DNA from: Anaerolineae bacterium
Lineage (GTDB): Bacteria; Chloroflexota; Anaerolineae; Anaerolineales; RBG-16-64-43
Length of the DNA stretch: 53,982 nt
Assembly (NCBI GenBank): GCA_003141675.1
Contig: PLND01000053.1
Coordinates: 6,153 to 60,134, forward strand
Direction: 5' to 3'
Within the stretch, counting starts at the first letter, position 1. Every line of letters starts with the position of its first letter. Positions 12,595-22,867 of this stretch are shown piece after piece. Made by a program: the position numbers and the translations under genes. Below the pieces are notes generated by a model that did no database searches, was not told the DNA's origin, and worked only from the letters and a program-made list of their open reading frames with translations.

Positions 12595-14025
12595 TCATGG
12601 CTTCCCGGGGGGCGACCAAATGAGAGTCCAAGGGCCAGGCACGGAAACACCAACATCGCTGTCCAGTTCGACGGTTAATTTTCCAATTGGTATATGTCCA
12701 TTCTTATAGGTAACAAACACATCATCTGGGTCCACTATGCAGTCTTCATTATCAAGTCCTTCTAAAATGCAGAGACTAAAATCGTGGCTATCATCGGTAA
12801 GTCGATGATTTGTAATAAAGGTATAGCCCGTCTTTGTCATTGTTACTTCCTCGATCACATATTCAACCCCGAGCAAAATGACATGTTGATTGATTTTCCA
12901 TGTTTGACCAATTTGTGGATTTGCGCCGGTATCGAACTGGAAAGTGGCGCTTTCGCTTGTATGAACACCTACATTATCCAACCGCAGGGTCAGCGGGAAG
13001 ATGATGGGTTTTTCGATTTCGTAGGCCCATTGAAACGAGTTATTCCATTGATCCGCTGGCCGGATGTCGGTCCGTGGCCAAGCCGTAATCCTATTTCCTT
13101 TTGCATCCGTAAAGATAAAAGGATCAACTACAGGATAATCTTTGCCTACCCCACAACATTGACCAGGCAAATCACCCGCGTTGGTGAAATTCCCAATCAA
13201 GAGATATGAATCTTCATATTCGATAACTCTATCCAGATAGAGACCCGTACCATTTGGTACGCGGGTTGGCATGGGTGGCCAGTTGGTCGGATATTCATCG
13301 GTAATTTCAAGAGTCGGGCTGGCGGTTGTTTTGAAGGTTGGGCCGGATTTCTGGGCGGTAACCCCGATTTCCACGCCGGGGGTAATAAAATTCTTGGGAG
13401 CAGGGATGAGCGAGAAGGGGACTTCCAAATTGAACGTCGGTCCAAATTTGTTCGTGGGATCGACGTTGGGGAAGACCAACACAACTTTCTGCGTATCCGA
13501 AGGTAAAGGCGGAAATGTACTACTTGTATTAATACGACCGCTCTCGCTTGACCATCCCATTCCGCCGCCAGTGGAGGAAGTTAGTTCTTTGCCGTTTCCC
13601 AAACGCAGGACGGGAATGGGGAAGAAATCACCGGGACCAAATGGGAAGCCATCGAAATGATACTGTATCACCGTGCGGGTTGCATCCGCTATGACTGTAT
13701 CCACCACAATGATAACCCCTCCATGCTGCACGCGGACCGGCTCCTTTAGGACACGAACAGGTGCGCTCAAATCCACGAGACCCACGCCGGGGAGGTAGCC
13801 CATGGTTTTTCCGATCACATACGCCACGCCGGTTAACAACGCCAGGGCGAGAACCAAAACAAGAATCAACAAAGCGGGTCTTGAACGCAAGGTTTGTAGG
13901 AAGGTCTTCTTTCTTCCACGAGCGGAATCGGGGATAAGGTTAACGAGGCGCGGCAGCAGATTGATGTCGCTCGGAATGTAGTCGGCTGCAACCGCATCCA
14001 GAACATCGTGATACGTCCTGTTCAT
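12595..14025 (-). CDS. Membrane-anchored putative anti-sigma factor (DUF4179-like), single TM with a large extracytoplasmic part
   Basis: Short N-terminal cytoplasmic region, one TM, then GYLPGVGLV; start overlaps the ECF sigma stop; paralogous to 46653-48992. Confidence 0.65.
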   Translation of the reverse strand: MNRTYHDVLDAVAADYIPSDINLLPRLVNLIPDSARGRKKTFLQTLRSRPALLILVLVLALALLTGVAYVIGKTMGYLPGVGLVDLSAPVRVLKEPVRVQHGGVIIVVDTVIADATRTVIQYHFDGFPFGPGDFFPIPVLRLGNGKELTSSTGGGMGWSSESGRINTSSTFPPLPSDTQKVVLVFPNVDPTNKFGPTFNLEVPFSLIPAPKNFITPGVEIGVTAQKSGPTFKTTASPTLEITDEYPTNWPPMPTRVPNGTGLYLDRVIEYEDSYLLIGNFTNAGDLPGQCCGVGKDYPVVDPFIFTDAKGNRITAWPRTDIRPADQWNNSFQWAYEIEKPIIFPLTLRLDNVGVHTSESATFQFDTGANPQIGQTWKINQHVILLGVEYVIEEVTMTKTGYTFITNHRLTDDSHDFSLCILEGLDNEDCIVDPDDVFVTYKNGHIPIGKLTVELDSDVGVSVPGPWTLIWSPPGKP

Positions 14026-14567
14026 TTCGCGTTCCTTTCCCCGAGCAAACTCCGCAAACGGTTACGGGCGGCGTTCAATAACCATTTGACGGTACCCGGC
14101 GCGGCGCCGAGCGTGCGCGCCATTTCCCCTTCACTCATTCCAAGATAATAACGATCGATAATTACAGCACGTTGTCTCGGCGAGAGTTTCGATATAGCGG
14201 AGAGAATTTCCTTTCGGAGATGTGCAAACTCCACCTGTGATTCGACCGTGGCAGCACGATCGAGCAGCGATTCCACTTCGTCCAGATCATCCAACGGAAT
14301 CGATCGGTTTTCGCGTCGCACCAGATGCAACGCCATATTGACCACGCTACGCATGAGATACGGCTCGAACGGGCGCGTCTCGTCGAAGTGTTGGATGCCT
14401 TCTATCATTCGAAGGAACGTCTCTTGAACGACATCCTGTGCGGTGGTTTCATCATGCATGATAAGGAATGCCACTCGAGCCGCTTTGACCTGATAACGCA
14501 CGACGAGCGGTTCTAACCCGCTGGTATCCCTGCGTTTTAAGCGGCGGATGGCCTGCAGATCATCCAT
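14022..14567 (-). CDS. ECF-type RNA polymerase sigma-70 factor
   Basis: AQDVVQETFL, FEPYLMRSVVN, LSPRQR and GTVKWLLNAAR motifs; GGAGG RBS. Confidence 0.9.
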   Translation of the reverse strand: MDDLQAIRRLKRRDTSGLEPLVVRYQVKAARVAFLIMHDETTAQDVVQETFLRMIEGIQHFDETRPFEPYLMRSVVNMALHLVRRENRSIPLDDLDEVESLLDRAATVESQVEFAHLRKEILSAISKLSPRQRAVIIDRYYLGMSEGEMARTLGAAPGTVKWLLNAARNRLRSLLGERNAK

Positions 14568-14850
14568 GAAATCCTCCGTTATGGATATGCACGCTCACAA
14601 TATATATATCCAATGCTAAGTCAAAAGGTTGGGTATTTTTTCCTATCAGATAGCACATCCGGCGATTCTTGCGCTTTAAGCAGCACAACCCTACGCGCCT
14701 ACCTGTGCTGGCCACTTGGCTTATTCTGATTAAATGGTGGTGTGTCTCTTCTTGGGATTCCTAAAGTCCGCAAAGTTTCGTAGCGATCCAACAGGATATA
14801 TATCACACTTGTTATGCGTACCTAATTGATTGTTATTCGAGCACAATTTG

Positions 14851-14885
14851 CGGGAGAGATATTGCCGAGGGCAATATCTCTCCCG
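14851..14885. other. Perfect 16-bp inverted repeat hairpin downstream of the Ubl operon
   Basis: CGGGAGAGATATTGCC-GAG-GGCAATATCTCTCCCG; no clear U-tract after the stem on either strand. Confidence 0.5.
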
Positions 14886-15037
14886 TAAAAACCACATAAG
14901 TTAATTTATTGACATACTGGAAGAATATCTTAAAACCTCTGAAATGTCTCCTTTAATTCCATTCAAAATGGCTTTTCCATTAGAAGGTCGCGACGCCTCG
15001 CTCCTTACGGGGCTCGGAGTGACATTATTAAGAAATT

Positions 15038-16195
15038 TCATTTTAATTTAATTCGACTCGCCTTTGGCTCTTGCAGCCGGATCCTGGGAGCGGTCGATTT
15101 GTATTGGCTTTCACCCATGCTCTTGGCCGGCACCAGGGTCAGGATTTTTTGCGCTCCGGCTGGCGCGAAGAGCAGCACGATCAATGCGGCCAGCAGGCCG
15201 AAGAACAGCGGCCAGGAAGACGACGGGGAAACCGCCGCCTCCGGAACCAGGCCGCCCGGGTTGTAGGCTCCCTTGGCGGGCACGGCGAGCGTGGAATCCG
15301 AAAGTTTGACGCTCAATGCGCGGTTGAGACCGTCCCGCAACGAAGCAGGGGAAACGTAAGTGATCACGTACTCGCTCTGCAGCGCGCGCCCATACTGTTC
15401 GTACAAATTGCGCAAAGCGGTGGCGTCGTTGACGTATCCATAACTCCCGCCGGCGCGCTCGGCCAAGCTCTTCAGCGACGGTTCGTCGATACCGGCGAGG
15501 GAACTCGTTTTCTGGGTGGAATCGCCGAGGCCGATCGTGGAAATGGAGAGTCCCGGCGGGCCGATCGCGGCGACGATGCCGTCGGCGGTTTGCTTGCTGC
15601 GGTTGTCCATCCCGTCGGTGAGGACGATGATCGCCTTGCGGCCGGAGACGTCCTTGAGCAGGTCGGTTCCCTGGATCAGGGCGTCGTACATCGCCGTATC
15701 GCTCCCGGCGATCAACCCTTGGATCGCCAACTTTAATTTGTCATGATCGGCCGTCACCGGCTGCACATAGGTAATGCGCGTATTAAAGGAAAGGAGGCCG
15801 GCTTCGTCCCCGGTGCGCATCTGATCGACGTAGGCGGAGGCGGCCGATTTGGCCGAGGTCAGTTTATTGTCGTAGTTCATGCTTGCGGAAATATCCACCA
15901 CGAGCAGAGTGGTCAGGGGCACGCTGTTCCCGATACCGGTGACATCGCTGGGAGTGATCCGCTTGCTGTTTTCATAGAGTTGAATGGTATCGAGCTTGAC
16001 CGGGGCGGGTTCGCCTGAACTCTCGGTCACCGAGATGTACACCTTTACCTTCGGAAAAGCGGAAGTATCGACCTGGGTGATGTGCACCTGCAACTGGCCC
16101 GAAGCCTGGGCATGAACCGGCGCGGCGCGTAGCCCCAGGGCTGCCAGGACGAGGAACGGAAGGAAAAATCTGATTTGCGTTCTAAACCGGTCCAT
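15038..16195 (-). CDS. Secreted, membrane-anchored von Willebrand factor A (VWA) domain protein
   Basis: Signal peptide (PVHAQA), MIDAS DISAS...T...LTDG, C-terminal TM and basic tail ending RIRL...RIKLK. Confidence 0.88.
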   Translation of the reverse strand: MDRFRTQIRFFLPFLVLAALGLRAAPVHAQASGQLQVHITQVDTSAFPKVKVYISVTESSGEPAPVKLDTIQLYENSKRITPSDVTGIGNSVPLTTLLVVDISASMNYDNKLTSAKSAASAYVDQMRTGDEAGLLSFNTRITYVQPVTADHDKLKLAIQGLIAGSDTAMYDALIQGTDLLKDVSGRKAIIVLTDGMDNRSKQTADGIVAAIGPPGLSISTIGLGDSTQKTSSLAGIDEPSLKSLAERAGGSYGYVNDATALRNLYEQYGRALQSEYVITYVSPASLRDGLNRALSVKLSDSTLAVPAKGAYNPGGLVPEAAVSPSSSWPLFFGLLAALIVLLFAPAGAQKILTLVPAKSMGESQYKSTAPRIRLQEPKASRIKLK

Positions 16196-16198
16196 GCT

Positions 16199-17056
16199 TC
16201 ACCTCTTTTCGTGATAGACGAGTTCCGTATTTCCCAGCCGCAGGATTTGACGGTTGGCAAGCTGCGCCAATTCCACCCGCCGTTTGTTGACGAATGTTCC
16301 CGTCTTGCTCATATCCTTGATGGTGAAATGCGAGCCGTTACCCGTGAGCATCGCGTGTTGCGGGGCGATATCCGGGTCGGGGAAGACAATGTCGGCTTTG
16401 AGCGCATCGCTGCCGAGGATGACGCTCGGGCCCTTGGCTTTGAGGAATTTATCCAGGATGAACTCGGCTCCGCGCAGCTTGCCGCTGGCCACTTCGATCC
16501 AGGCCCGCGATAGCAGCACGACGATCAGCGCGATGAGCGCTCCGACCGACCCTCCCAGTAGCACCAAGCCCAGCGCCTTTCCCAGGAGCGGATTCTTCAG
16601 CGCGTCGCGGGCGGCTTCCAAAAAGCCTCCACCCACGATCCCGCCGAGCAAGCCTCCCAGCGCGCCCTTCCACATCTGGCTCCCGCCGGTGATCCCTTCG
16701 GCCAGGCCGATCAACCCGCCGAACACTCCCCATCCCAGGGCGCGGCCGAAAAAGCCCGCCCCCAGAATCTGAAACAGGAATTCCCCGAGCGGAAGGCCGA
16801 TGGCGCCGGCTATAAGGCCAAGGCCCGCGGCGACCGCTCCGGCCCGCAATGCGCGGGCGAAGTTCAGCGTGAAGAGGCCTTCGGTGACTCCGATGAGCAA
16901 TCCAATGCTAAGGCCGATCAGCGCGCCTACGAACACTTCGCTCAGGTAGACGCTGCCGGTGAAGGATAATCCCGCCAGGTTGCTGATCTGCCATCCCAAA
17001 AGCCCCCCGATCGCGCCCAGGATTCCATAGTTGTAAGTCCGCATTCCTCTACTCAT
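16199..17056 (-). CDS. Gly-rich multi-pass membrane protein with C-terminal FHA-like domain
   Basis: About 6 Gly-rich TM helices, then LGS...DIAPQHA...IKDMSKTGTFVN...ILRLG (FHA pattern). Confidence 0.8.
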   Translation of the reverse strand: MSRGMRTYNYGILGAIGGLLGWQISNLAGLSFTGSVYLSEVFVGALIGLSIGLLIGVTEGLFTLNFARALRAGAVAAGLGLIAGAIGLPLGEFLFQILGAGFFGRALGWGVFGGLIGLAEGITGGSQMWKGALGGLLGGIVGGGFLEAARDALKNPLLGKALGLVLLGGSVGALIALIVVLLSRAWIEVASGKLRGAEFILDKFLKAKGPSVILGSDALKADIVFPDPDIAPQHAMLTGNGSHFTIKDMSKTGTFVNKRRVELAQLANRQILRLGNTELVYHEKR

Positions 17057-17771
17057 GGTTCTCCGCTCCTTCCGTCAATCCCTCTGGTTTTTCCAGTTCG
17101 AGGTTCTTCCAATACACAAGGCTCTTTCCGGAATTCCCGACGATCTCCAGAAATCCATGGTAGCGGTGATGGTCGAGGCTCCCGTCTTCTTCCCGCACGA
17201 AGAACCCGCCGATCTGGGTGTGCGGTTCGATGACCAGCGCCACCTGCCATGGTTCCGGAAAAAAATGTTGATGCAGCCAAAGGTCGTAATCCGAAAGGAA
17301 AACGCCCATTCTTGGGTGGGTGTGGAACCACCCGACCATGCGCTTTTCCGGATAGCGCGTCTCCTGCTCGTCGTGCAGTGCCACCAACGTATCCTGGGTG
17401 AAGGTGAGGAAAGCGCTTCCGTGCCGGGTGAACCGGGCGGGGAGCACGGCTTCCGCCACGATGAATTGCTCCCCGCTCGGATTGTCGATCCGCCATTGGC
17501 CGATAAGCGCTCCGCCCACTTCGTTGTCCATATCCTGTCCGGCCAGGGAACAGATCTGGACAAACGCGGGCTGGGTGAGGAACACCGACACCGCGGGTTT
17601 GCTCCCGTCCCGGTCGAACGGCGAGTTCCACCGCCGGACCTTCGATCGCGGGATGCGCGAGGGGCGCGGGTCCGGAGTCTCGGGCGGGCCGAGCCGGACG
17701 CGCGAAGATTCCGTTTTGGGGAATTCTTCGCCCTGTGGGAGTTCTGCATCGACCATCGGCATGACAGTCAA
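17049..17771 (-). CDS. JAB/MPN+ (Mov34) metallo-isopeptidase (putative deubiquitinase / Ubl-processing enzyme)
   Basis: EVGGALIG ... GWFHTHPRMGVFLSDYD matches the JAMM motif E-xn-HxH-x7-S-x2-D; exact start codon uncertain. Confidence 0.9.
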   Translation of the reverse strand: MTVMPMVDAELPQGEEFPKTESSRVRLGPPETPDPRPSRIPRSKVRRWNSPFDRDGSKPAVSVFLTQPAFVQICSLAGQDMDNEVGGALIGQWRIDNPSGEQFIVAEAVLPARFTRHGSAFLTFTQDTLVALHDEQETRYPEKRMVGWFHTHPRMGVFLSDYDLWLHQHFFPEPWQVALVIEPHTQIGGFFVREEDGSLDHHRYHGFLEIVGNSGKSLVYWKNLELEKPEGLTEGAENHE

Positions 17772-17774
17772 CCC

Positions 17775-18041
17775 TTAGCCGGCGGTGACGTCGGCGGTGA
17801 GGATCAGGCGGTCGCCGGTGGGAACCGACGCGGAGGAAAGGGTTTCCTCCTCCTGCAATTCGCGCCCCAGCGCCTTGCTGTCGATGCGATAGCTCATCGG
17901 TCGGCCGTCGGGACCGGTAGTCGGCAGCTGCAGCGAGGTGGTCAATTCCGGAATGAGTTCCTTGACGACCACGTCGTTCGGAACCTCCGCGGTGCGGGAG
18001 CCGCCGGATGGTAATACTACGGTAACGGGAACGTCAGCCAT
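17775..18041 (-). CDS. Ubiquitin-like beta-grasp protein (EsaB/YukD-like) ending in a free C-terminal Gly
   Basis: 88 aa; ETLSSASVPTGDRLIL resembles the ubiquitin TL..YNI...TLHL strand; ends TAG-stop; AAGGAG RBS. Confidence 0.85.
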   Translation of the reverse strand: MADVPVTVVLPSGGSRTAEVPNDVVVKELIPELTTSLQLPTTGPDGRPMSYRIDSKALGRELQEEETLSSASVPTGDRLILTADVTAG

Positions 18042-18056
18042 TTTCTCGTCTCCTTA

Positions 18057-18317
18057 TTACGAATTGCGGATGGTGCGCGGGTTTGGGTCCTGCTTGTCTT
18101 GCGGATACGCGCTCAATTGGTCCTCGTTCTTTGTATACGGAAGAAACGGAGAAGAGCCGAAGTCACGGAAAAATTTATTGTTCTCCTTGCCCCATTTATT
18201 TCCAATCAAGGAGTTGGAGTTATCCAAAAGGAATTCTCGGTGAGTTCCGTTATTTTCGGTGCCCCCGGCCCGACCCATGCCGGGGCGGGCTTCCGTGTAC
18301 TGGTTTTTACTAGACAT
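18057..18317 (-). CDS. Small hypothetical protein within the Ubl operon
   Basis: 86 aa; strong AAGGAGG RBS; fills the gap between the Ubl-E2 and Ubl genes; no recognisable domain. Confidence 0.6.
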   Translation of the reverse strand: MSSKNQYTEARPGMGRAGGTENNGTHREFLLDNSNSLIGNKWGKENNKFFRDFGSSPFLPYTKNEDQLSAYPQDKQDPNPRTIRNS

Positions 18318-18336
18318 TCCTGCCTCCTTGTCCTTC

Positions 18337-19173
18337 CTACTTCAACCGGATGCGCGGGGCGGGGTTTTTTTTCAGTTTGACCCGTCCCGGCCGCAACAGT
18401 TCGCGCTCGTCCACCGGAAACGCGTGCGGATGGTCGGCCCGGTAGGCCCGGCTCCAGCGCGCGGCATCCGGATCCCAGGGGAAGGGCGGCTTGGTGGGAT
18501 CGTCGTGGAAGTTCTTGTACTGCACCATTTCGCCCAGCATGATCACCAGTCGGTCCAGCGAACGGCTGGCGGTCCACCAGGCCACGTCGATGCAAACTGT
18601 TTTGTTGAGATGGTGAATATTCGGATGCCAGATCGGGGTCAGCCATTTCAGCCCGGGCCAGCGCTGCGGATACTGGTTGTGCAGGTAGATTTCCACCTGA
18701 TGATGGCTGGAATATTTGGGCCGCCCCAGTTTGTCGATTGCGGCGATTCCCTTACATCGGTACGTGACGATGTACCGTTCCGGCGCGGGGGATCCCCTGG
18801 AATCCACAGCCTCGAAAGTAATCAGGCTGCTCTGGGCGGCCAGTTCGCGCATCAACTCGTAATCCGCGATCAACCGGCGCACGCGCGGGCTTTGGGAGAG
18901 CGCCATGCCGCCGGCGGTGATGTCCGCCGTCAGGATCAAGCGGTCGCCGGAGGGAATCTTGGCCGAGGCGAGGGTTTCGTCCTCGCGCAGCTCGCGGCCC
19001 AGCGCCTTGCTGTCCATGCGGTATCCCATCGGCCGACCATCGGGTCCGACGGTGGGCAGTTTGAGAAGCGACGTGAGCTCCGCCATCAGGTCGCGCACCG
19101 GCGCGTCGTCGGGTACGTCGGCGGTGCGGGCGCCGCCGCTGGGCAAAACGATGGTCACGGATAGATCAGCCAT
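18337..19173 (-). CDS. Ubl-E2 (ubiquitin-conjugating, UBC-fold) fusion protein
   Basis: Residues 1-88 are a Ubl (63/88 identical to 17775-18041 by manual alignment) ending TAG-G; then RVRRL..DY, YPQRWP and IWHPNI...VCID (HPN motif plus catalytic Cys). Confidence 0.9.
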   Translation of the reverse strand: MADLSVTIVLPSGGARTADVPDDAPVRDLMAELTSLLKLPTVGPDGRPMGYRMDSKALGRELREDETLASAKIPSGDRLILTADITAGGMALSQSPRVRRLIADYELMRELAAQSSLITFEAVDSRGSPAPERYIVTYRCKGIAAIDKLGRPKYSSHHQVEIYLHNQYPQRWPGLKWLTPIWHPNIHHLNKTVCIDVAWWTASRSLDRLVIMLGEMVQYKNFHDDPTKPPFPWDPDAARWSRAYRADHPHAFPVDERELLRPGRVKLKKNPAPRIRLK

Positions 19174-19235
19174 TGTGTCGGGCTCCTTGTGTTACAAGAA
19201 TTTACATCCGTATCGTTCGCGTTCCCGCCGGAAGG

Positions 19236-19970
19236 TCAGGTGTGATAATGCGGAACCTGGCACATTCCGGTGATATCCCAGCAATCCTTGTGGTGGCGGG
19301 TGTGGCAGATCGGGCACACGACCACTCCGCGCGGATCCCTCGCCTCGATCGGTTGCAGGCAGTAGGGGCATTTGTATTTCTCGGCCCCGGTCAGGCGGAT
19401 CTCGGCATCGGGCCGCGCCCTTTGGAAGAACCGCAGTACGCCGCCGAAGCGATTGCGGGATGGGCGCGCGTCCTTTGCCGGCGCAGTGGCTTTAATTTTC
19501 TTTTCCAGTGCGGCGGATGGCTGCGGTTCCCCCAGAACCTCTCCGGCTGGTGCGGGGGCGGCGCGTTTCCTCCAGGCAACGAGGGCGAGCGCGGATGTGG
19601 CGGCGCCGATCGCCATCAATCCCAACGCCCCCCAATCCGGACGTCTCTCCGCGGGGAGGGTGGGATCGGCGCCGACCAGTCCCTGGGTCAGCCAACCCAT
19701 GATCAACAAGCTCAGCAATGTGGCGGTGATCGCGGCGGTTAATCGCAGCGGAAACGAAAACCGGCGAAAGAAAAGACGGGAGACGAACCCCAGGAAGATG
19801 CCTGCTCCCGCAGCGGCCGCGATTGCATAAACCCACGGCAAGATTGTGTCGTTGACCACCCCGGCAACCGCGAACCCCGCCGCCGTGAAACAAGCCAGCA
19901 GCGCCAGAAGTTCCAATCGGAACAGCAGCAGAAACAATCTCGGTGAGGAGTAAGGCTGGGAACCGCTCAC
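19236..19970 (-). CDS. Membrane protein with C-terminal prokaryotic RING-like zinc finger (putative E3)
   Basis: About 4 TM helices; C-terminal CPYC-x14-CPIC-x3-HH-x2-CW-x5-C-x3-H fits the Prok-RING_1-type pattern; GTG start overlaps the E1 stop (GTGA). Confidence 0.8.
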   Translation of the reverse strand: MSGSQPYSSPRLFLLLFRLELLALLACFTAAGFAVAGVVNDTILPWVYAIAAAAGAGIFLGFVSRLFFRRFSFPLRLTAAITATLLSLLIMGWLTQGLVGADPTLPAERRPDWGALGLMAIGAATSALALVAWRKRAAPAPAGEVLGEPQPSAALEKKIKATAPAKDARPSRNRFGGVLRFFQRARPDAEIRLTGAEKYKCPYCLQPIEARDPRGVVVCPICHTRHHKDCWDITGMCQVPHYHT

Positions 19971-21640
19971 GGCACACTCTCGTCCGGTGCCGTTTTTTCG
20001 TCGTGTAGAACGATCCGTCCGGCCGCCGGGCCCTTGTCTCCCTCATCCGGTTCCACGGCTTCCCCCAGGGAGATGCGTTCACGCAGCGGGATGGCAGAAA
20101 CGGCTTCCGGATTTTCGAAATGCCGGAAGTGCAGCGTCTCGGAAAGATCGCCGGTTAATTCGTAGAACCGAAACTCGCTTGAGTTGCGGGCGCGCAGAAT
20201 GTGAAGGGGGGGCACGCCCACGCTGGAAAGCGTCCGCTCCAGGAAGGTCTCGTCGCCGCGGATCTCGTGTGTCAGCTCGATTTCGCGCAGCAGGCCGCAG
20301 GACGGACAGTGGCCGGCTTCGAAGGTCACCGCTTCGAGCGGACGCAAGACCTCCTCGCGGGTGTGGCAACTCGGGCAGGTGAGAGAGAGGATCAATTCCT
20401 GATCCAGTTCGATCACGGCGTCGGACCCCAGATCCTGGCGCACCAGGCGCAACATCTCGGAGAGGGTTGTGCGGGAAGCACGCGCCGGAAGCTCGATCAC
20501 CTCGCCGTAGACCCAGTGGCTCTCGCAATCCTCGCGCGGGACATAGGCGCTGGTGTGCATCTCGTTGGTCAATCCGTTGAAATGCACAACCTTGCCTGCT
20601 TCCACCGGCATCCCGTGGATCAGCTTGAGCGCTTCCTGAGCCTGCATGCCGCCGATGATCGACGCGATCGTGGGAGTGGTCGGGACTTTTCCCAGGAGGA
20701 TGTTTTGCCGAGCCAGCAGCGGGCAGGAATAGCGCAGGGAAAGATCGCGCCGCGCCTGCTCGGTGAGCGTGCATTCGAAACAGGCTCCGCGGCCGGGGAC
20801 GAACGTGCGCACCAGTCCCAGCAACTCCTGGATGGCGCCGTCGACCCACGGCTTGTTCATCCAATAGCAGAAGCGGTTCAACGCCAGCCGGGCTTCGCGG
20901 TTATCGAGGCATCCGATCACGGCGTCCATGCGCCGGATGATTCCCAGGCCCAGCTGGGTGGTCACGTCCCCATCGAGGTATTGGACGTGCACATGTGGAT
21001 TGAGGCTCCTGGCGCGCGAGGCGACAACCTGGGCTTTGCTGCGTTTGGTATCCCCCTCGCGGAAGAGCACCGAGCGACTGAGGTTGGCCGCCTCGACCGT
21101 ATCGAAATCGACGATAAAAAGGTGTCCGATACCCATCAGGGCGAGGTTCTTGATCACTTCGTTGCCGAGCGCGCCCGCGCCCACCACCATCACATTGGCG
21201 TCCCGGACCTTGTCCTTCTCCCACCAGGAAATGAATTCGAAAGTTCCCAGCCGGTCCGTTTGCAGATTGGGAACGTGGAGCGGTTTTTCCGAGCTAGCGG
21301 GGAGGCGGTGCGGGCCGCTCGGGGTTTCTCCGCCGGGCGGGGTTTTTTCCGCGCCAAGCTGCCGGTAGGCGCCGGCCAGGTCGCGGGCCGCCGCGAGATT
21401 GTCGGCGTCCAGTTTGCACGCGAACCATCCCACGCCGGCCCGGGCTTCGATCAGACCGTTTTCTTCCATAGCCTTGAGCGCCTCGCGTAGCGTGGCGCGG
21501 CTGATATCCAGTTGCTGGATCAACTCCCTTTCGGAGGGGAGTTGTTCACCGGCCTTAATCGATCCATCGAGCACAGAGCCCGACAGACGCCCGGCGACAG
21601 CCTGTGATAATGACACGTGTCCGATCGGTAATATCTTCAT
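19967..21640 (-). CDS. GntR-family HTH fused to ThiF/E1 ubiquitin-activating enzyme with Zn-ribbon C-terminus
   Basis: N-terminal GEQLPSERELIQQLDISRATLREAL (GntR wHTH); GAGALG, DFDTVEAANLSR, CLDNREAR, CFEC, candidate catalytic YSCP, two CPSC; start taken as ATG 21640. Confidence 0.92.
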   Translation of the reverse strand: MKILPIGHVSLSQAVAGRLSGSVLDGSIKAGEQLPSERELIQQLDISRATLREALKAMEENGLIEARAGVGWFACKLDADNLAAARDLAGAYRQLGAEKTPPGGETPSGPHRLPASSEKPLHVPNLQTDRLGTFEFISWWEKDKVRDANVMVVGAGALGNEVIKNLALMGIGHLFIVDFDTVEAANLSRSVLFREGDTKRSKAQVVASRARSLNPHVHVQYLDGDVTTQLGLGIIRRMDAVIGCLDNREARLALNRFCYWMNKPWVDGAIQELLGLVRTFVPGRGACFECTLTEQARRDLSLRYSCPLLARQNILLGKVPTTPTIASIIGGMQAQEALKLIHGMPVEAGKVVHFNGLTNEMHTSAYVPREDCESHWVYGEVIELPARASRTTLSEMLRLVRQDLGSDAVIELDQELILSLTCPSCHTREEVLRPLEAVTFEAGHCPSCGLLREIELTHEIRGDETFLERTLSSVGVPPLHILRARNSSEFRFYELTGDLSETLHFRHFENPEAVSAIPLRERISLGEAVEPDEGDKGPAAGRIVLHDEKTAPDESVP

Positions 21641-21648
21641 AGGTTGGC

Positions 21649-21675
21649 TGGTATGCTGGTCAGACCAGTATACCA
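21649..21675. promoter_or_regulatory. FadR/GntR-type palindromic operator
   Basis: TGGTATGCTGGTCAGACCAGTATACCA, a near-perfect 27-bp palindrome with core TGGTCTGACCA (minus strand), 9 nt upstream of the GntR-E1 ATG. Confidence 0.75.
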
Positions 21676-21678
21676 ACA

Positions 21679-21706
21679 ATTCTAAAAGGTTTTTAAGGCT
21701 TGTCAA
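21679..21706 (-). promoter_or_regulatory. Sigma70-type promoter of the Ubl operon
   Basis: TTGACA (21706-21701), 16-nt spacer, TAGAAT (21684-21679). Confidence 0.7.
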
Positions 21707-22099
21707 TGGTCAATTTAATAGGCAAAAATGCTTTTTCCAATAATAGAAGCTTTTTTATTAAGGTCGCCGTCCTGTTTATAAAATGGTGAAGAATTATTCG
21801 AGGAACTGACCATTTTGGCGTTATTTCAAAAACAGTTTAATCAGCCACATTCCCTGGGATGCAAAAAAGTCACTATGGTTCGATGCGATTAAGTTTGACA
21901 AAATCGAATGCCGCTCGAAATTTCTTTCTTTTGACCGATAATTGGTTGAAAATCATTCCGATTGATCCATGAATCTAAAAAAAATACGCTATAATCCGGC
22001 TCAACTAGATCGAAGGAGAGGTTGGTTTGCTCTCCTGCATTTCCGGCGAGTTCCTTTGGGGAAGGAACCGATCTCATCCCTTTTTCTCATGGAGGAAAA

Positions 22100-22867
22100 A
22101 TGAAGATACGATCTTTGGTGATCCTTTCCGTCCTCATGGTGGCCGCCATGCTGATTTCCGGTTGCAGTGGTGGTATCTTGGGAGGCAAACCCAAATACAC
22201 CGTCGCCACCGACGCCACCTGGTACCCCTTCGAGTTTGTGGATGAGAACTCCAAGGAGATCGTCGGATTCGATATCGATCTGATGAAGGCCATCGCGGAT
22301 AAAGAAGGCATCCAGGTGGAATTCAAGAATGTCGCTTGGGAGGCCCTTCTGGCAGGGATGGCCCAATGCCAGTACGACGCGGCGATTTCCTCGATCTCCA
22401 TCACCGAGGACCGCAAACCGAATATGCTTTTCTCCGATCCGTACTACACGGTCGGACAGCAGGTAGTGGTGGCCGCCGATAACGCCACCATCAAGGGTAA
22501 AGACGATCTGAGCGGAAAAAAGGTGGGCGCGCAAATATCCACCACCGGCGCCATTGAAATCGGAAAGATCACCGGGGCGGAGCTGGTGAACTTCGATACC
22601 ATCGGCCTGGCCTTCCAGGCGCTAATGAACGGCAGCATCGACGCCGTGGTGGCCGATAACGTCATGGCCCTGGGTTACGTCAGCAAGTATTCCGACAAAA
22701 TGAAAGCCGCGGGAGATCCCTTTACCGGCGAGTCGATCGGCATTGCCGTATGCAAAACCAAACCCGATCTCCTCAAGAAGATGAACGACGGTCTGGCGAA
22801 AGTCACAGCGGAGAATTTGATCGACACACTCAACACCCAGTGGGTGAAGAATCAAAAATTGCCGTAA
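22100..22867 (+). CDS. Polar/basic amino-acid ABC transporter substrate-binding lipoprotein
   Basis: Lipobox ISGC; DATWYPFEF, GFDIDL and ITEDRK motifs; GGAGG RBS. Confidence 0.9.
   Translation: MKIRSLVILSVLMVAAMLISGCSGGILGGKPKYTVATDATWYPFEFVDENSKEIVGFDIDLMKAIADKEGIQVEFKNVAWEALLAGMAQCQYDAAISSISITEDRKPNMLFSDPYYTVGQQVVVAADNATIKGKDDLSGKKVGAQISTTGAIEIGKITGAELVNFDTIGLAFQALMNGSIDAVVADNVMALGYVSKYSDKMKAAGDPFTGESIGIAVCKTKPDLLKKMNDGLAKVTAENLIDTLNTQWVKNQKLP

Follow-up and report, generated by a model that had tools for sequence, protein, structure and literature searches.

Bacterial operons that combine genes for a ubiquitin-activating enzyme (E1), a ubiquitin-conjugating enzyme (E2), a RING-type ligase (E3), a JAB peptidase and a ubiquitin-like protein (Ubl), including fusions of Ubl and E2, are cited to Burroughs et al. 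2011 in passages of two later papers (PMC10557695, PMC7159879), the former of which, a 2023 preprint, still terms the RING-bearing operons uncharacterized in the passage concerned (PMC10557695). For bacteria, "some examples of complete operons" are noted by Hennell James et al. 2017 (PMC5654768), and a section of Kaur et al. 2020 describes a complete Ubl system (JAB, E1, RING and a Ubl-E2 protein) inside FtsH-type vWA-MoxR systems, along with a related system in Thermofonsia and planctomycetes (PMC7159879). Here we describe a locus of this kind at positions 15038-21706, minus strand, of a 53,982-nucleotide stretch of DNA from an Anaerolineae bacterium (assembly GCA_003141675.1, contig PLND01000053.1, positions 6,153 to 60,134 of the forward strand); the whole stretch is called the window below. 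The locus consists of seven genes with family matches and one orphan open reading frame (ORF), and its E1, E2, RING-type, Ubl and JAMM components are all recognizable at the level of sequence, with intact catalytic motifs, as an earlier reading of the same DNA without database searches (the sequence-only reading) had proposed. Burroughs, Iyer and Aravind reportedly proposed, in the abstract of their 2011 article (Mol Biosyst 7:2261), that systems of this type conjugate YukD-like Ubls. We regard the locus as a highly conserved, apparently complete Ubl-conjugation cassette of a kind already known as a computational prediction. The cassette is very probably real Ubl-conjugation machinery, and its reading as a self-regulated, membrane-anchored Ubl conjugation cassette of the prokaryotic E1-E2-RING type has, in our estimate, a probability of about 0.55.

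The "tri-ligase" operons of Burroughs et al. 2011 have the same component set, and the RING protein of the cassette is a Prok-RING_1 member. The operon of Caldiarchaeum subterraneum (Hennell James 2017, PMC5654768; Fuchs 2018, PMC6043591) resembles the cassette in its compact set of E1, E2, RING E3, JAMM peptidase and precursor modifier, and it has been rebuilt in vitro; in contrast to the archaeal operon, the cassette has a YukD-like modifier, a RING protein with four transmembrane (TM) segments, FHA and VWA membrane partners and a GntR domain, and no PF00227 proteasome-family member was found in its genome. The FtsH-type vWA-MoxR tri-ligase system shares separate JAB, E1 and RING genes, a Ubl-E2 protein and a vWA protein with the cassette and, in the section of the article that describes it, also contains a caspase-like effector, the AAA+ ATPases MoxR and FtsH and, attached to the Ubl, an EAD1 adaptor (PMC7159879). 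MoxR, FtsH, EAD1 and a caspase-like effector were all absent from the Pfam matches of the eight ORFs of the locus and of seven flanking ORFs, and the cassette differs further in that its vWA protein is exported and membrane-anchored and in that it includes an FHA protein.

Bil (BilABCD) and the Type II CBASS proteins Cap2/Cap3 are similar to the cassette in their E1/E2/JAB chemistry and operon layout, but they have no RING E3 and belong to a phage-defense context. The BilB motif is CEHH according to a passage of a review (PMC11354881), whereas the E2 of the cassette has a eukaryote-type HPN motif. The only match to Bil components was a weak one of the E1 to BilD (1.8e-7); the E2, the Ubl and the JAB protein matched no Bil model, and a RING protein is present. 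As to Type II CBASS, the PADLOC "E1-E2" models match the adenylation domain only (aa 149-313), the E2 is encoded by a separate gene and no CD-NTase was found at the locus. Bub operons, as described in the preprint by Ye et al. (PMC11601596), resemble the cassette in a cleaved fusion of the Ubl-E2 type (BubAB) and a possible membrane association; they differ in having the serine protease BubE rather than a JAMM peptidase, in having no RING and in lying in mobile elements or defense loci.

The sequence-only reading had not recognized the architecture from described systems. Novelty of kind has to be given up, since operons with E1, E2, RING, JAB and Ubl genes, including Ubl-E2 fusions, are already cited to Burroughs et al. 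2011 in the passages mentioned above. No description of the seven-gene architecture, of the GntR-E1 operator or of the tail motif (see below) was found in literature that did not include Burroughs et al. 2011 and a 2012 review, which may show the cassette. The literature searched contained no experimentally characterized bacterial member with a RING, and an FHA domain lacking the residues that bind phosphothreonine was not found in print, again with Burroughs et al. 2011 not covered.

Gene order and enzyme components

The locus was scored with Pfam, NCBIfam and PADLOC models and by hydropathy of the ORF translations. The source genome has 2.82 Mb and its assembly is 99.7% complete. A scan of one genome per species yielded 305 encoding stretches, and the counts over 80 loci below use the best 80 of these 305 (at least 69% identity), which come almost all from Anaerolineae-type metagenome-assembled genomes. 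Among these 80, the seven genes were colinear in all 52 loci with enough contig, and the order E1, RING, Ubl-E2, Ubl, JAB, FHA, VWA was found in 11/11 loci fetched from relatives, two of which had the VWA gene cut by a contig end. The gene-neighborhood check that the sequence-only reading had suggested thus returned the same seven-gene order in 52/52 and 11/11 related loci, and the arrangement of the genes is conserved far beyond chance.

Identity to the proteins of the window was 69-100% for the Ubl, 69-97% for the Ubl-E2 protein, 46-94% for the E1, 54-95% for the FHA protein, 45-93% for the JAB protein, 43-84% for the VWA protein and 23-94% for the RING protein. The closest proteins were assigned to Anaerolineales or Chloroflexota. 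The Ubl-E2 gene was found in 20 of 41 related genomes (17/20 in the same family, 2/20 in other families of the order), and 13 of 401 genomes matched in an even sample of the phylum. After clustering of a protein library at 50% identity, a single cluster (P0241, 72%) contained the window-type Ubl-E2; the Ubl-E2 protein had 600 matches in this library with E <= 1e-10, and stand-alone E2s of 160-230 aa accounted for most of the 150 listed.

The Ubl-E2 fusion (18337-19173, minus strand) matched Pfam YukD (1.3e-10) and UQ_con (1.8e-8). It is composed of a YukD-like Ubl (aa 1-88, ending in ...DITAG88), an E2 core (aa ~95-255) and a basic tail, RVKLKKNPAPRIRLK-COOH (aa 264-278). H183-P184-N185 and C194 of the E2 were invariant in 14/14 aligned sequences; the motif aligns with eukaryotic "WHPNI...C[IL]D", and the solved relatives were eukaryotic E2s only, the best at 1e-7. 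The free Ubl (17775-18041, minus strand; 88 aa, Pfam YukD 1.3e-12) has the C-terminus ...TADVTAG and is 72% identical to the fused domain. Its last residues are TAG in 72 of 79 loci, and in the other seven it is extended by 2-7 residues. At the fusion junction, G88 is invariant; in 81 loci, DITAG is followed 43 times by A, 27 times by G, 9 times by S and twice by K. The JAMM/MPN+ peptidase (17049-17771, minus strand; Pfam JAB 1.4e-7), with its motif at 17283-17324, has E84 and H150-x-H152-x7-S160-x2-D163 invariant in 12 sequences. Its best solved relatives were AMSH/STAMBP (5.8e-6) and the Rpn11-like protein of Caldiarchaeum (6fjv, 1.1e-4), followed by Rpn11 and CSN5. Because the free Ubl ends at Gly, its extensions are short and fused and unfused forms interchange, we infer that the JAMM peptidase cuts after Gly88 and so would expose the Ubl C-terminus.

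The interchange of forms was seen in more distant loci. A locus from another class of the phylum (L105) has the same seven genes with an E2 that lacks the fused Ubl, while two others (L107 and L106) encode a GntR-less E1, a Ubl, an E2, two JAB proteins and two RING proteins and have neither FHA nor VWA genes. Across these variants, fused and unfused Ubl/E2 forms replace one another. The operon at L107 6048-11777, also found in L106, represents another type of RING-bearing Ubl operon within the class to which the window belongs; its JAB proteins are long, one of its Prok-RING_1 proteins has a C-terminal hydrophobic segment, it has no operator or tail motif of the type described below, and it lies downstream of genes for a dynamin-like GTPase and a CAP-domain protein. 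A separate stretch (L108 147-10552) contains an E1, a divergent Ubl-E2 protein (31% identity, junction ...SVAG followed by A, HPN kept) and two family-less proteins; here the Ubl-E2/E1 pair adjoins NERD-kinase, DUF499 and HicA genes, which looks like a defense-island setting, unlike that of the window. One contig labelled Candidatus Eisenbacteria (L038), found among records that are otherwise of Anaerolineae type, has a Ubl-E2 protein 75% identical to that of the window; a binning error or gene transfer is possible.

The RING protein (19236-19970, minus strand) has four hydrophobic segments within residues 9-133 by hydropathy and a C-terminal Prok-RING_1 finger (3.6e-9) at aa 201-243 (window 19242-19370), which scores above the curated cut-off. 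According to the Pfam note on Prok-RING_1, bacterial members of the family carry TM helices. C201, C204, C219, C222, H226/H227, C230, C237 and H241 are invariant and make up eight predicted Zn ligands in a C4HC-CH pattern, and 53/53 aligned homologs of the RING protein matched Prok-RING_1 above cut-off. The TM region is poorly conserved, which goes along with the wide range of overall identity (23-94%), and the Protein Atlas neighbors of the protein are Chloroflexota Prok-RING_1 clusters. Outside the cassette, no Prok-RING_1 or YukD domain was found in the genome. Eukaryotic RING-CH ligases (MARCH, Doa10) are multi-pass membrane proteins with a cytoplasmic C4HC3-like finger, so placed that they can tag the cytoplasmic tails of membrane proteins; the likeness is only a functional analogy, no homology to the RING protein of the cassette having been found beyond the RING-like finger, and the last ligand pair of the cassette finger is C-x3-H.

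Adjoining genes of the cassette have start/stop overlaps or 3-nt gaps. Eight tightly packed co-directional genes had been claimed by the sequence-only reading; the claim stands for the seven with family matches and falls for the 86-aa orphan ORF (18057-18317). This ORF lies in a variable spacer (18042-18336, minus strand) between the genes for the Ubl-E2 protein and the free Ubl; it had no Pfam, NCBIfam or PADLOC match, occurred in only 3/80 loci and was therefore rejected as an eighth gene. It is 57% identical in a genome of the same genus whose flanking genes are 97-100% identical. The spacer measures 295 nt in the window and 18-388 nt across the 80 loci (median 76), and no Rfam match to a spacer or leader RNA was found within 14000-22500 at E <= 0.1. 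A Shine-Dalgarno-like GGAGG precedes the ATG of the ORF, and the spacer is covered by RNA-library contigs. The orphan ORF is probably not a real gene, and the spacer is probably non-coding.

The GntR-E1 protein and its predicted operator

The E1 is fused to an N-terminal GntR winged helix-turn-helix (wHTH) domain (Pfam GntR 6.7e-17, ThiF 1.7e-56; 19967-21640, minus strand, listed as 19967-21706). The ORF list gave 579 aa from TTG 21706. Since this TTG is the first base of a promoter-like site, TTGACA-16-TAGAAT, and conservation of the protein begins at the Met of ATG 21640, the true start is probably ATG 21640, which gives 557 aa; all E1 residue numbers count from this codon. The site (21679-21706, minus strand) matches 11/12 consensus positions of a sigma-70 promoter, and a TTGAC-like -35 and a TAnAAT-like -10 element recur upstream of the E1 in related loci.

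Four nucleotides after the -10 element starts a 27-bp palindrome, TGGTATaCTGGTC-T-GACCAGcATACCA (21649-21675, minus strand), with the core TGGTCTGACCA; read from 21675 to 21649, the predicted operator is TGGTATACTGGTC-T-GACCAGCATACCA. The conserved TGGTCNGACCA predicted operator overlies the E1 promoter. Counts for the site refer to 65 distinct upstream regions of related loci, an earlier count over 74 loci having held duplicate genomes. GGTCNGACC was found in 60/65 distinct upstream regions of the E1, TGGTN3ACCA in 50/65 and GGTN3ACC in 61/65, as compared to 2/65 for the last pattern after shuffling. The full 27-bp site occurs once in the 2.8-Mb genome, and CTGGTCNGACCAG gives one match (0.27 expected). 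The site keeps its place in related loci while the DNA around it becomes entirely different; L105, whose E1 carries GntR, has the site in front of this gene, and L107, whose E1 lacks GntR, does not.

The form TGGT-N3-ACCA is that of FadR-type GntR operators. Both features expected of the GntR family, an N-terminal GntR wHTH and a palindromic predicted operator at its own promoter, were found. The cassette E1 shares them with FadR-like GntR repressors, but the usual effector-binding domain of these repressors is replaced in the cassette by a complete E1 adenylation enzyme. Since the predicted operator is conserved, unique in the genome and tracks the GntR-bearing E1, we think it very probable that GntR-E1 is bound there and keeps the operon repressed; that it acts as an autorepressor of the operon through the palindrome is, on this evidence, considerably better than an even chance. 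We know of no E1 enzyme described as doubling as a sequence-specific transcription factor.

The enzyme part of the protein has the nucleotide loop GAGALGNE, CFEC, CPSC...CPSCG and RYSC306 invariant in 10 sequences. The Zn pairs are C287/C290 and C422/C425 plus C445/C448, and RYSC306 lies in a short crossover loop. A single-sequence search of solved structures gave UBA7 at 1.3e-27 as against ThiF at 1.4e-22, and a profile of 10 sequences gave UBA7 at 1.5e-37, UBA1 at 4e-33 and SAE2 at 1.6e-29 as against ThiF at 1.2e-25 and MoeB at 2.9e-23. The E1 remains below the NCBIfam cut-offs of TIGR02356 (ThiF; 141 bits vs 275) and TIGR02355 (MoeB; 98 vs 377). Near its C-terminus it has R-I-x-L motifs at aa 520-526 and 541-546.

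These observations bear on the weakest of the alternative explanations, in which the locus is a ThiS/MoaD-type sulfur-carrier pathway with incidental E2-like and RING-like genes: the adenylation domain does match ThiF/MoeB models, and its catalytic Cys shares with those of ThiF and MoeB the position in a short crossover loop, but the scores are far under the equivalog cut-offs, eukaryotic E1s match better, no rhodanese, MoaE, ThiG or cysteine-synthase domain was found by Pfam in the eight ORFs, and the E2, RING and JAMM genes stay with the E1 in 52/52 loci. We consider this explanation hardly credible, and the sequence-only reading, which had set cofactor sulfur transfer aside, is supported at the level of sequence.

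The FHA-like protein, the VWA protein and a shared tail

The last two genes encode further membrane proteins. The sequence-only reading had named membrane components, and these were all found again: the RING protein with its four hydrophobic segments, a VWA protein that has a tail after its C-terminal TM segment, and an FHA protein with TM segments. The FHA gene (16199-17056, minus strand; FHA 1.5e-12, Yop-YscD_cpl 1.5e-11) encodes a Gly-rich multi-TM protein with an FHA-like domain at aa ~186-285, which is C-terminal and cytoplasmic. In a canonical FHA domain, the phosphothreonine pocket has conserved Arg, Ser and Asn residues, which belong to GR, SxxH and NG, respectively. In an alignment with GarA and 3gqs, the GR, SxxH and NG positions of the cassette protein are occupied by GS, APQH and TG, and these replacements (Arg to Ser, Ser to Ala, Asn to Thr) are kept in orthologs. 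Judged by these residues, the FHA-like domain lacks those that bind phosphothreonine and is thus not a canonical phosphothreonine-binding FHA domain. No kinase or phosphatase was found by Pfam among the ORFs of the cassette.

The exported VWA protein (15038-16195, minus strand; Pfam VWA_2 2.7e-14) has a signal-like segment at aa 8-29, a C-terminal TM segment at aa 324-357 (more narrowly, aa ~328-347) and a cytoplasmic tail of ~38 residues. Its MIDAS motif is D101-I-S-A-S105 with the conserved Thr and Asp, and its TIGR03436 score is 81.8 bits (cut-off 81.25). The tail ends in PRIRLQEPKASRIKLK-COOH (window 15041-15088), and this motif is kept in orthologs. The C-terminal ends of the Ubl-E2 protein, ...GRVKLKKNPAPRIRLK, and of the VWA protein, ...APRIRLQEPKASRIKLK, share the basic tail RIRLK-COOH, which within the genome is common to these two proteins only. 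Of the 15849 ORFs of at least 60 aa obtained by reading the genome in six frames, exactly two, Ubl-E2 and VWA, have [RK][IV][RKH][LIF][KRH] as their C-terminus. Five ORFs have the motif in tandem within 20 residues: Ubl-E2, VWA and three that look like Arg-rich off-frame ORFs. Origin of the shared tail by recent duplication was considered and rejected, as the 3' ends of the E2 and VWA genes do not align as DNA.

In related loci, the strict C-terminal motif was present in 58/74 E2s, the remainder ending in xIRLK, and in 28/62 VWA tails, many others of which have one extra residue (for example, RIKLKD); most of the exceptions deviate by a single residue. At least two loose R-[IV]-x-[LIF] copies occurred in the last 70 residues of 53/75 E1s, as compared to 12/2044 background tails; the background tails and N-termini come from a crude ORF set of the genome, and the orthologs are not independent of each other. 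The motif was absent from every protein of L107, which has no FHA or VWA, and was present in L105, which has both.

The VWA tail carries the same C-terminal motif as the E2, and this ties the VWA protein to the enzymes. Whether the shared tail is a docking motif we consider evenly balanced. The FHA-like domain is the first candidate for its receptor, an assignment that we think rather unlikely to be correct. That the VWA tail is a substrate of Ubl tagging is slightly easier to accept but still doubtful, and as an obligate lysine substrate it is weakened by the finding mentioned below. A surface receptor or sensor, as proposed by the sequence-only reading, is a plausible candidate for the modified target. 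In Sulfolobus, the FHA protein ArnA and the vWA protein ArnB form a complex, according to a passage of PMC6509490.

Proposed mechanism, alternatives and significance

The following steps are drawn from motifs and from family knowledge. By cutting after Gly88, the JAMM peptidase would free the Ubl from the Ubl-E2 precursor and trim the extended forms of the free Ubl. The E1 would then adenylate the C-terminal Gly of the Ubl, hold it as a thioester on Cys306 and hand it to Cys194 of the E2, where the HPN motif would supply the oxyanion Asn. The 4-TM RING protein would position E2~Ubl on the cytoplasmic side of the membrane, promoting transfer to lysines of neighboring proteins; the best candidate targets would be the FHA protein and the VWA tail, both encoded by the cassette itself. 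The JAMM peptidase would also reverse the modification. The basic, beta-strand-like tail of E2 and VWA, which is found in looser form at the E1 C-terminus and at some JAB N-termini, might gather the enzymes and the receptor protein, with the FHA-like domain lacking the phosphothreonine pocket as a first guess for what binds it. The GntR domain of the E1, probably dimerized via the ThiF domain, would sit on the operator over its own transcription start, and repression might be relieved by E1 loading or by recruitment of the E1 to the membrane. The proteasome/HslV family PF00227 had no match in the 99.7% complete genome, while 10/14 control genomes matched; since no member of this family was found, the tag more likely would alter assembly, signaling or turnover by membrane proteases than deliver proteins to a proteasome.

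A further extension would couple receptor tagging to transcription, with an exported, metal-dependent VWA receptor whose tail mimics that of the E2, a phospho-independent FHA hub on which both tails, the E1 and the JAMM peptidase would dock, an adjacent membrane RING ligase and an E1 repressor: an outside ligand would lead to Ubl tagging at the membrane and at the same time pull the E1 off the operator, so that genes are induced. We consider this extension improbable as a whole.

That the cassette conjugates a Ubl is suggested by its nearest solved relatives, which are eukaryotic E1s for the E1, E2s for the E2 and AMSH/Rpn11/CSN5 for the JAB protein. Contigs from RNA libraries of four wetland runs lie on the cassette, 85/90 of them with at least 99% identity; they cover 22 to 30 of 30 bins and span the junctions VWA-FHA, FHA-JAB, Ubl-spacer-Ubl-E2 and E2-RING, but these contigs may include DNA and do not prove a single transcript; parts of the cassette uncovered in runs X3 and X4 are evidence of nothing. 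Several other points likewise weigh against the reading as a self-regulated, membrane-anchored conjugation cassette. The RING and UBC folds and all proposed contacts are deduced from primary structure. The Ubl had no solved relative in sequence searches, the RING profile finds solved RING-type fingers weakly (HOIL-1 at 0.017, TRIM5 at 0.77), and YukD proper is reported as not conjugated in a passage of PMC1779556. The N-terminal motif of the JAB protein was present in only 25/78 loci (background 18/2044 N-termini). In one of 62 VWA tails, Lys is missing from the final 35 residues, which argues against an obligate lysine substrate. L108, which has no recognizable FHA or VWA, has RIRF near the C-terminus of its E2, and the association of the tail motif with FHA and VWA rests on few variants and is suggestive only. 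Finally, the reading frame of one gene appeared broken in 3/11 fetched loci (E1 in L017, FHA in L019, Ubl-E2 in L024). The genes concerned were matched as two overlapping pieces, and the three assemblies have few, long contigs; the apparent breaks may reflect assembly or sequencing error or real decay.

The alternative that survives best is a Bil-like anti-phage or conflict system, in which the Ubl would be put on proteins of the invader at the membrane, the exported VWA protein would sense the attack at the cell surface and GntR-E1 would silence the operon until it is required. Published views, in passages of PMC3417536, PMC10557695 and PMC7159879, class bacterial E1/E2/(RING)/JAB/Ubl operons as conflict or defense systems. 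The sparse occurrence in the phylum (13/401 sampled genomes) would agree with such a role, as would the fact that the exposed parts evolve fastest (VWA and RING proteins; 43-84% and 23-94% identity) and the NERD-kinase, DUF499 and HicA genes beside the distant L108 pair. On the other hand, the cassette is near-universal in its own family (17/20), with a fixed gene order and 69-100% identity of Ubl and E2, unlike patchy defense genes. In PADLOC, generic E1-E2 and JAB models matched, together with the weak BilD match of the E1 (1.8e-7), while the E2, Ubl, RING, FHA and VWA proteins had no match at all. No relative of the cassette was found in viral contigs, and the only plasmid match was a distant E2 (NC_019754.1 40572-40970); this plasmid is a mobilizable one of a cyanobacterium (Crinalium), and the protein is annotated as ubiquitin-conjugating enzyme E2 and 30% identical over the E2 core. 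No nuclease, protease or pore effector was found beyond the proteins of the cassette itself.

The flanking genes bear on the same question in two ways. They encode an ECF (extracytoplasmic function) sigma factor with a probable anti-sigma partner, two family-less proteins and an amino-acid ABC transporter, which does not favor a conflict system; they also vary between genomes of the same genus, which could favor one. The gene for the ECF sigma factor and that for a 476-aa membrane protein (window 12595-14567) overlap by 4 nt, suggesting a sigma/anti-sigma pair. As a part of the system this pair was rejected: it was found in 1/80 loci, and since it is present in L024 and absent from L014, both of the same genus, the flank has been rearranged within the genus. 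The hint of defense given by the sequence-only reading, which had named Bil- and Bub-type systems and proposed a PADLOC check, gained no support: the PADLOC matches are generic, the flanks encode an ECF sigma factor and an amino-acid ABC transporter, and no relatives were found in viral contigs. The cassette does not look like a defense island, and we consider a conflict system unlikely.

Much less likely is a structural role, in which the Ubl is unconjugated and the beta-grasp, FHA and vWA proteins are parts of a YukD/EsaB-like membrane machine. Both Ubls match Pfam YukD, and type VII secretion clusters repeatedly include YukD-like, FHA and vWA proteins, according to a section of PMC11217815. 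The genome does encode an EssC-like triple FtsK ATPase and two WXG100 proteins, while its only YukD domains are those of the cassette. The EssC-like gene is on contig 6 (L123, 32861-38204) and codes for a 1296-aa protein with three FtsK/SpoIIIE stretches (2.5e-64), beside the two WXG100 genes; this core is at a contig end, and no YukD-family gene was seen there. Yet the YukD-like proteins of type VII systems have no C-terminal Gly-Gly, as stated in the part of PMC11217815 that deals with them, whereas the Ubls of the cassette end in an invariant Gly and are encoded together with a RING protein, a JAMM peptidase, an E1 and an E2 that has both HPN and Cys. Among 41 relatives, WXG100 genes and the cassette also differ in their distribution: the cassette occurs without a WXG100 match in at least eight genomes, five of them of genus g4, and three (G024, G028 and G038) have WXG100 without the cassette. 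With these genes on another contig and distributed independently of the cassette, the link to type VII secretion was rejected; the cassette is tied neither to type VII secretion nor to the proteasome.

Having weighed these alternatives, we retain the reading as a self-regulated, membrane-anchored Ubl conjugation cassette. Its enzymes are more eukaryote-like than those of Bil and CBASS, as indicated by the HPN motif of the E2 and by the best matches of the E1 (UBA1, UBA7 and SAE2). With seven genes, relatives in 305 species genomes and a fixed order wherever this can be judged, the cassette is a good entry point into RING-bearing bacterial Ubl systems, which bear on the origin of the E1-E2-E3 cascade before eukaryotes. 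From the predicted operator, the shared tail and the FHA domain without a phosphothreonine pocket, one can see how a link between tagging, location at the membrane and expression might come about, and if it is true that the E1 is a repressor, this would be a new wiring of a ubiquitin-like pathway to transcription.

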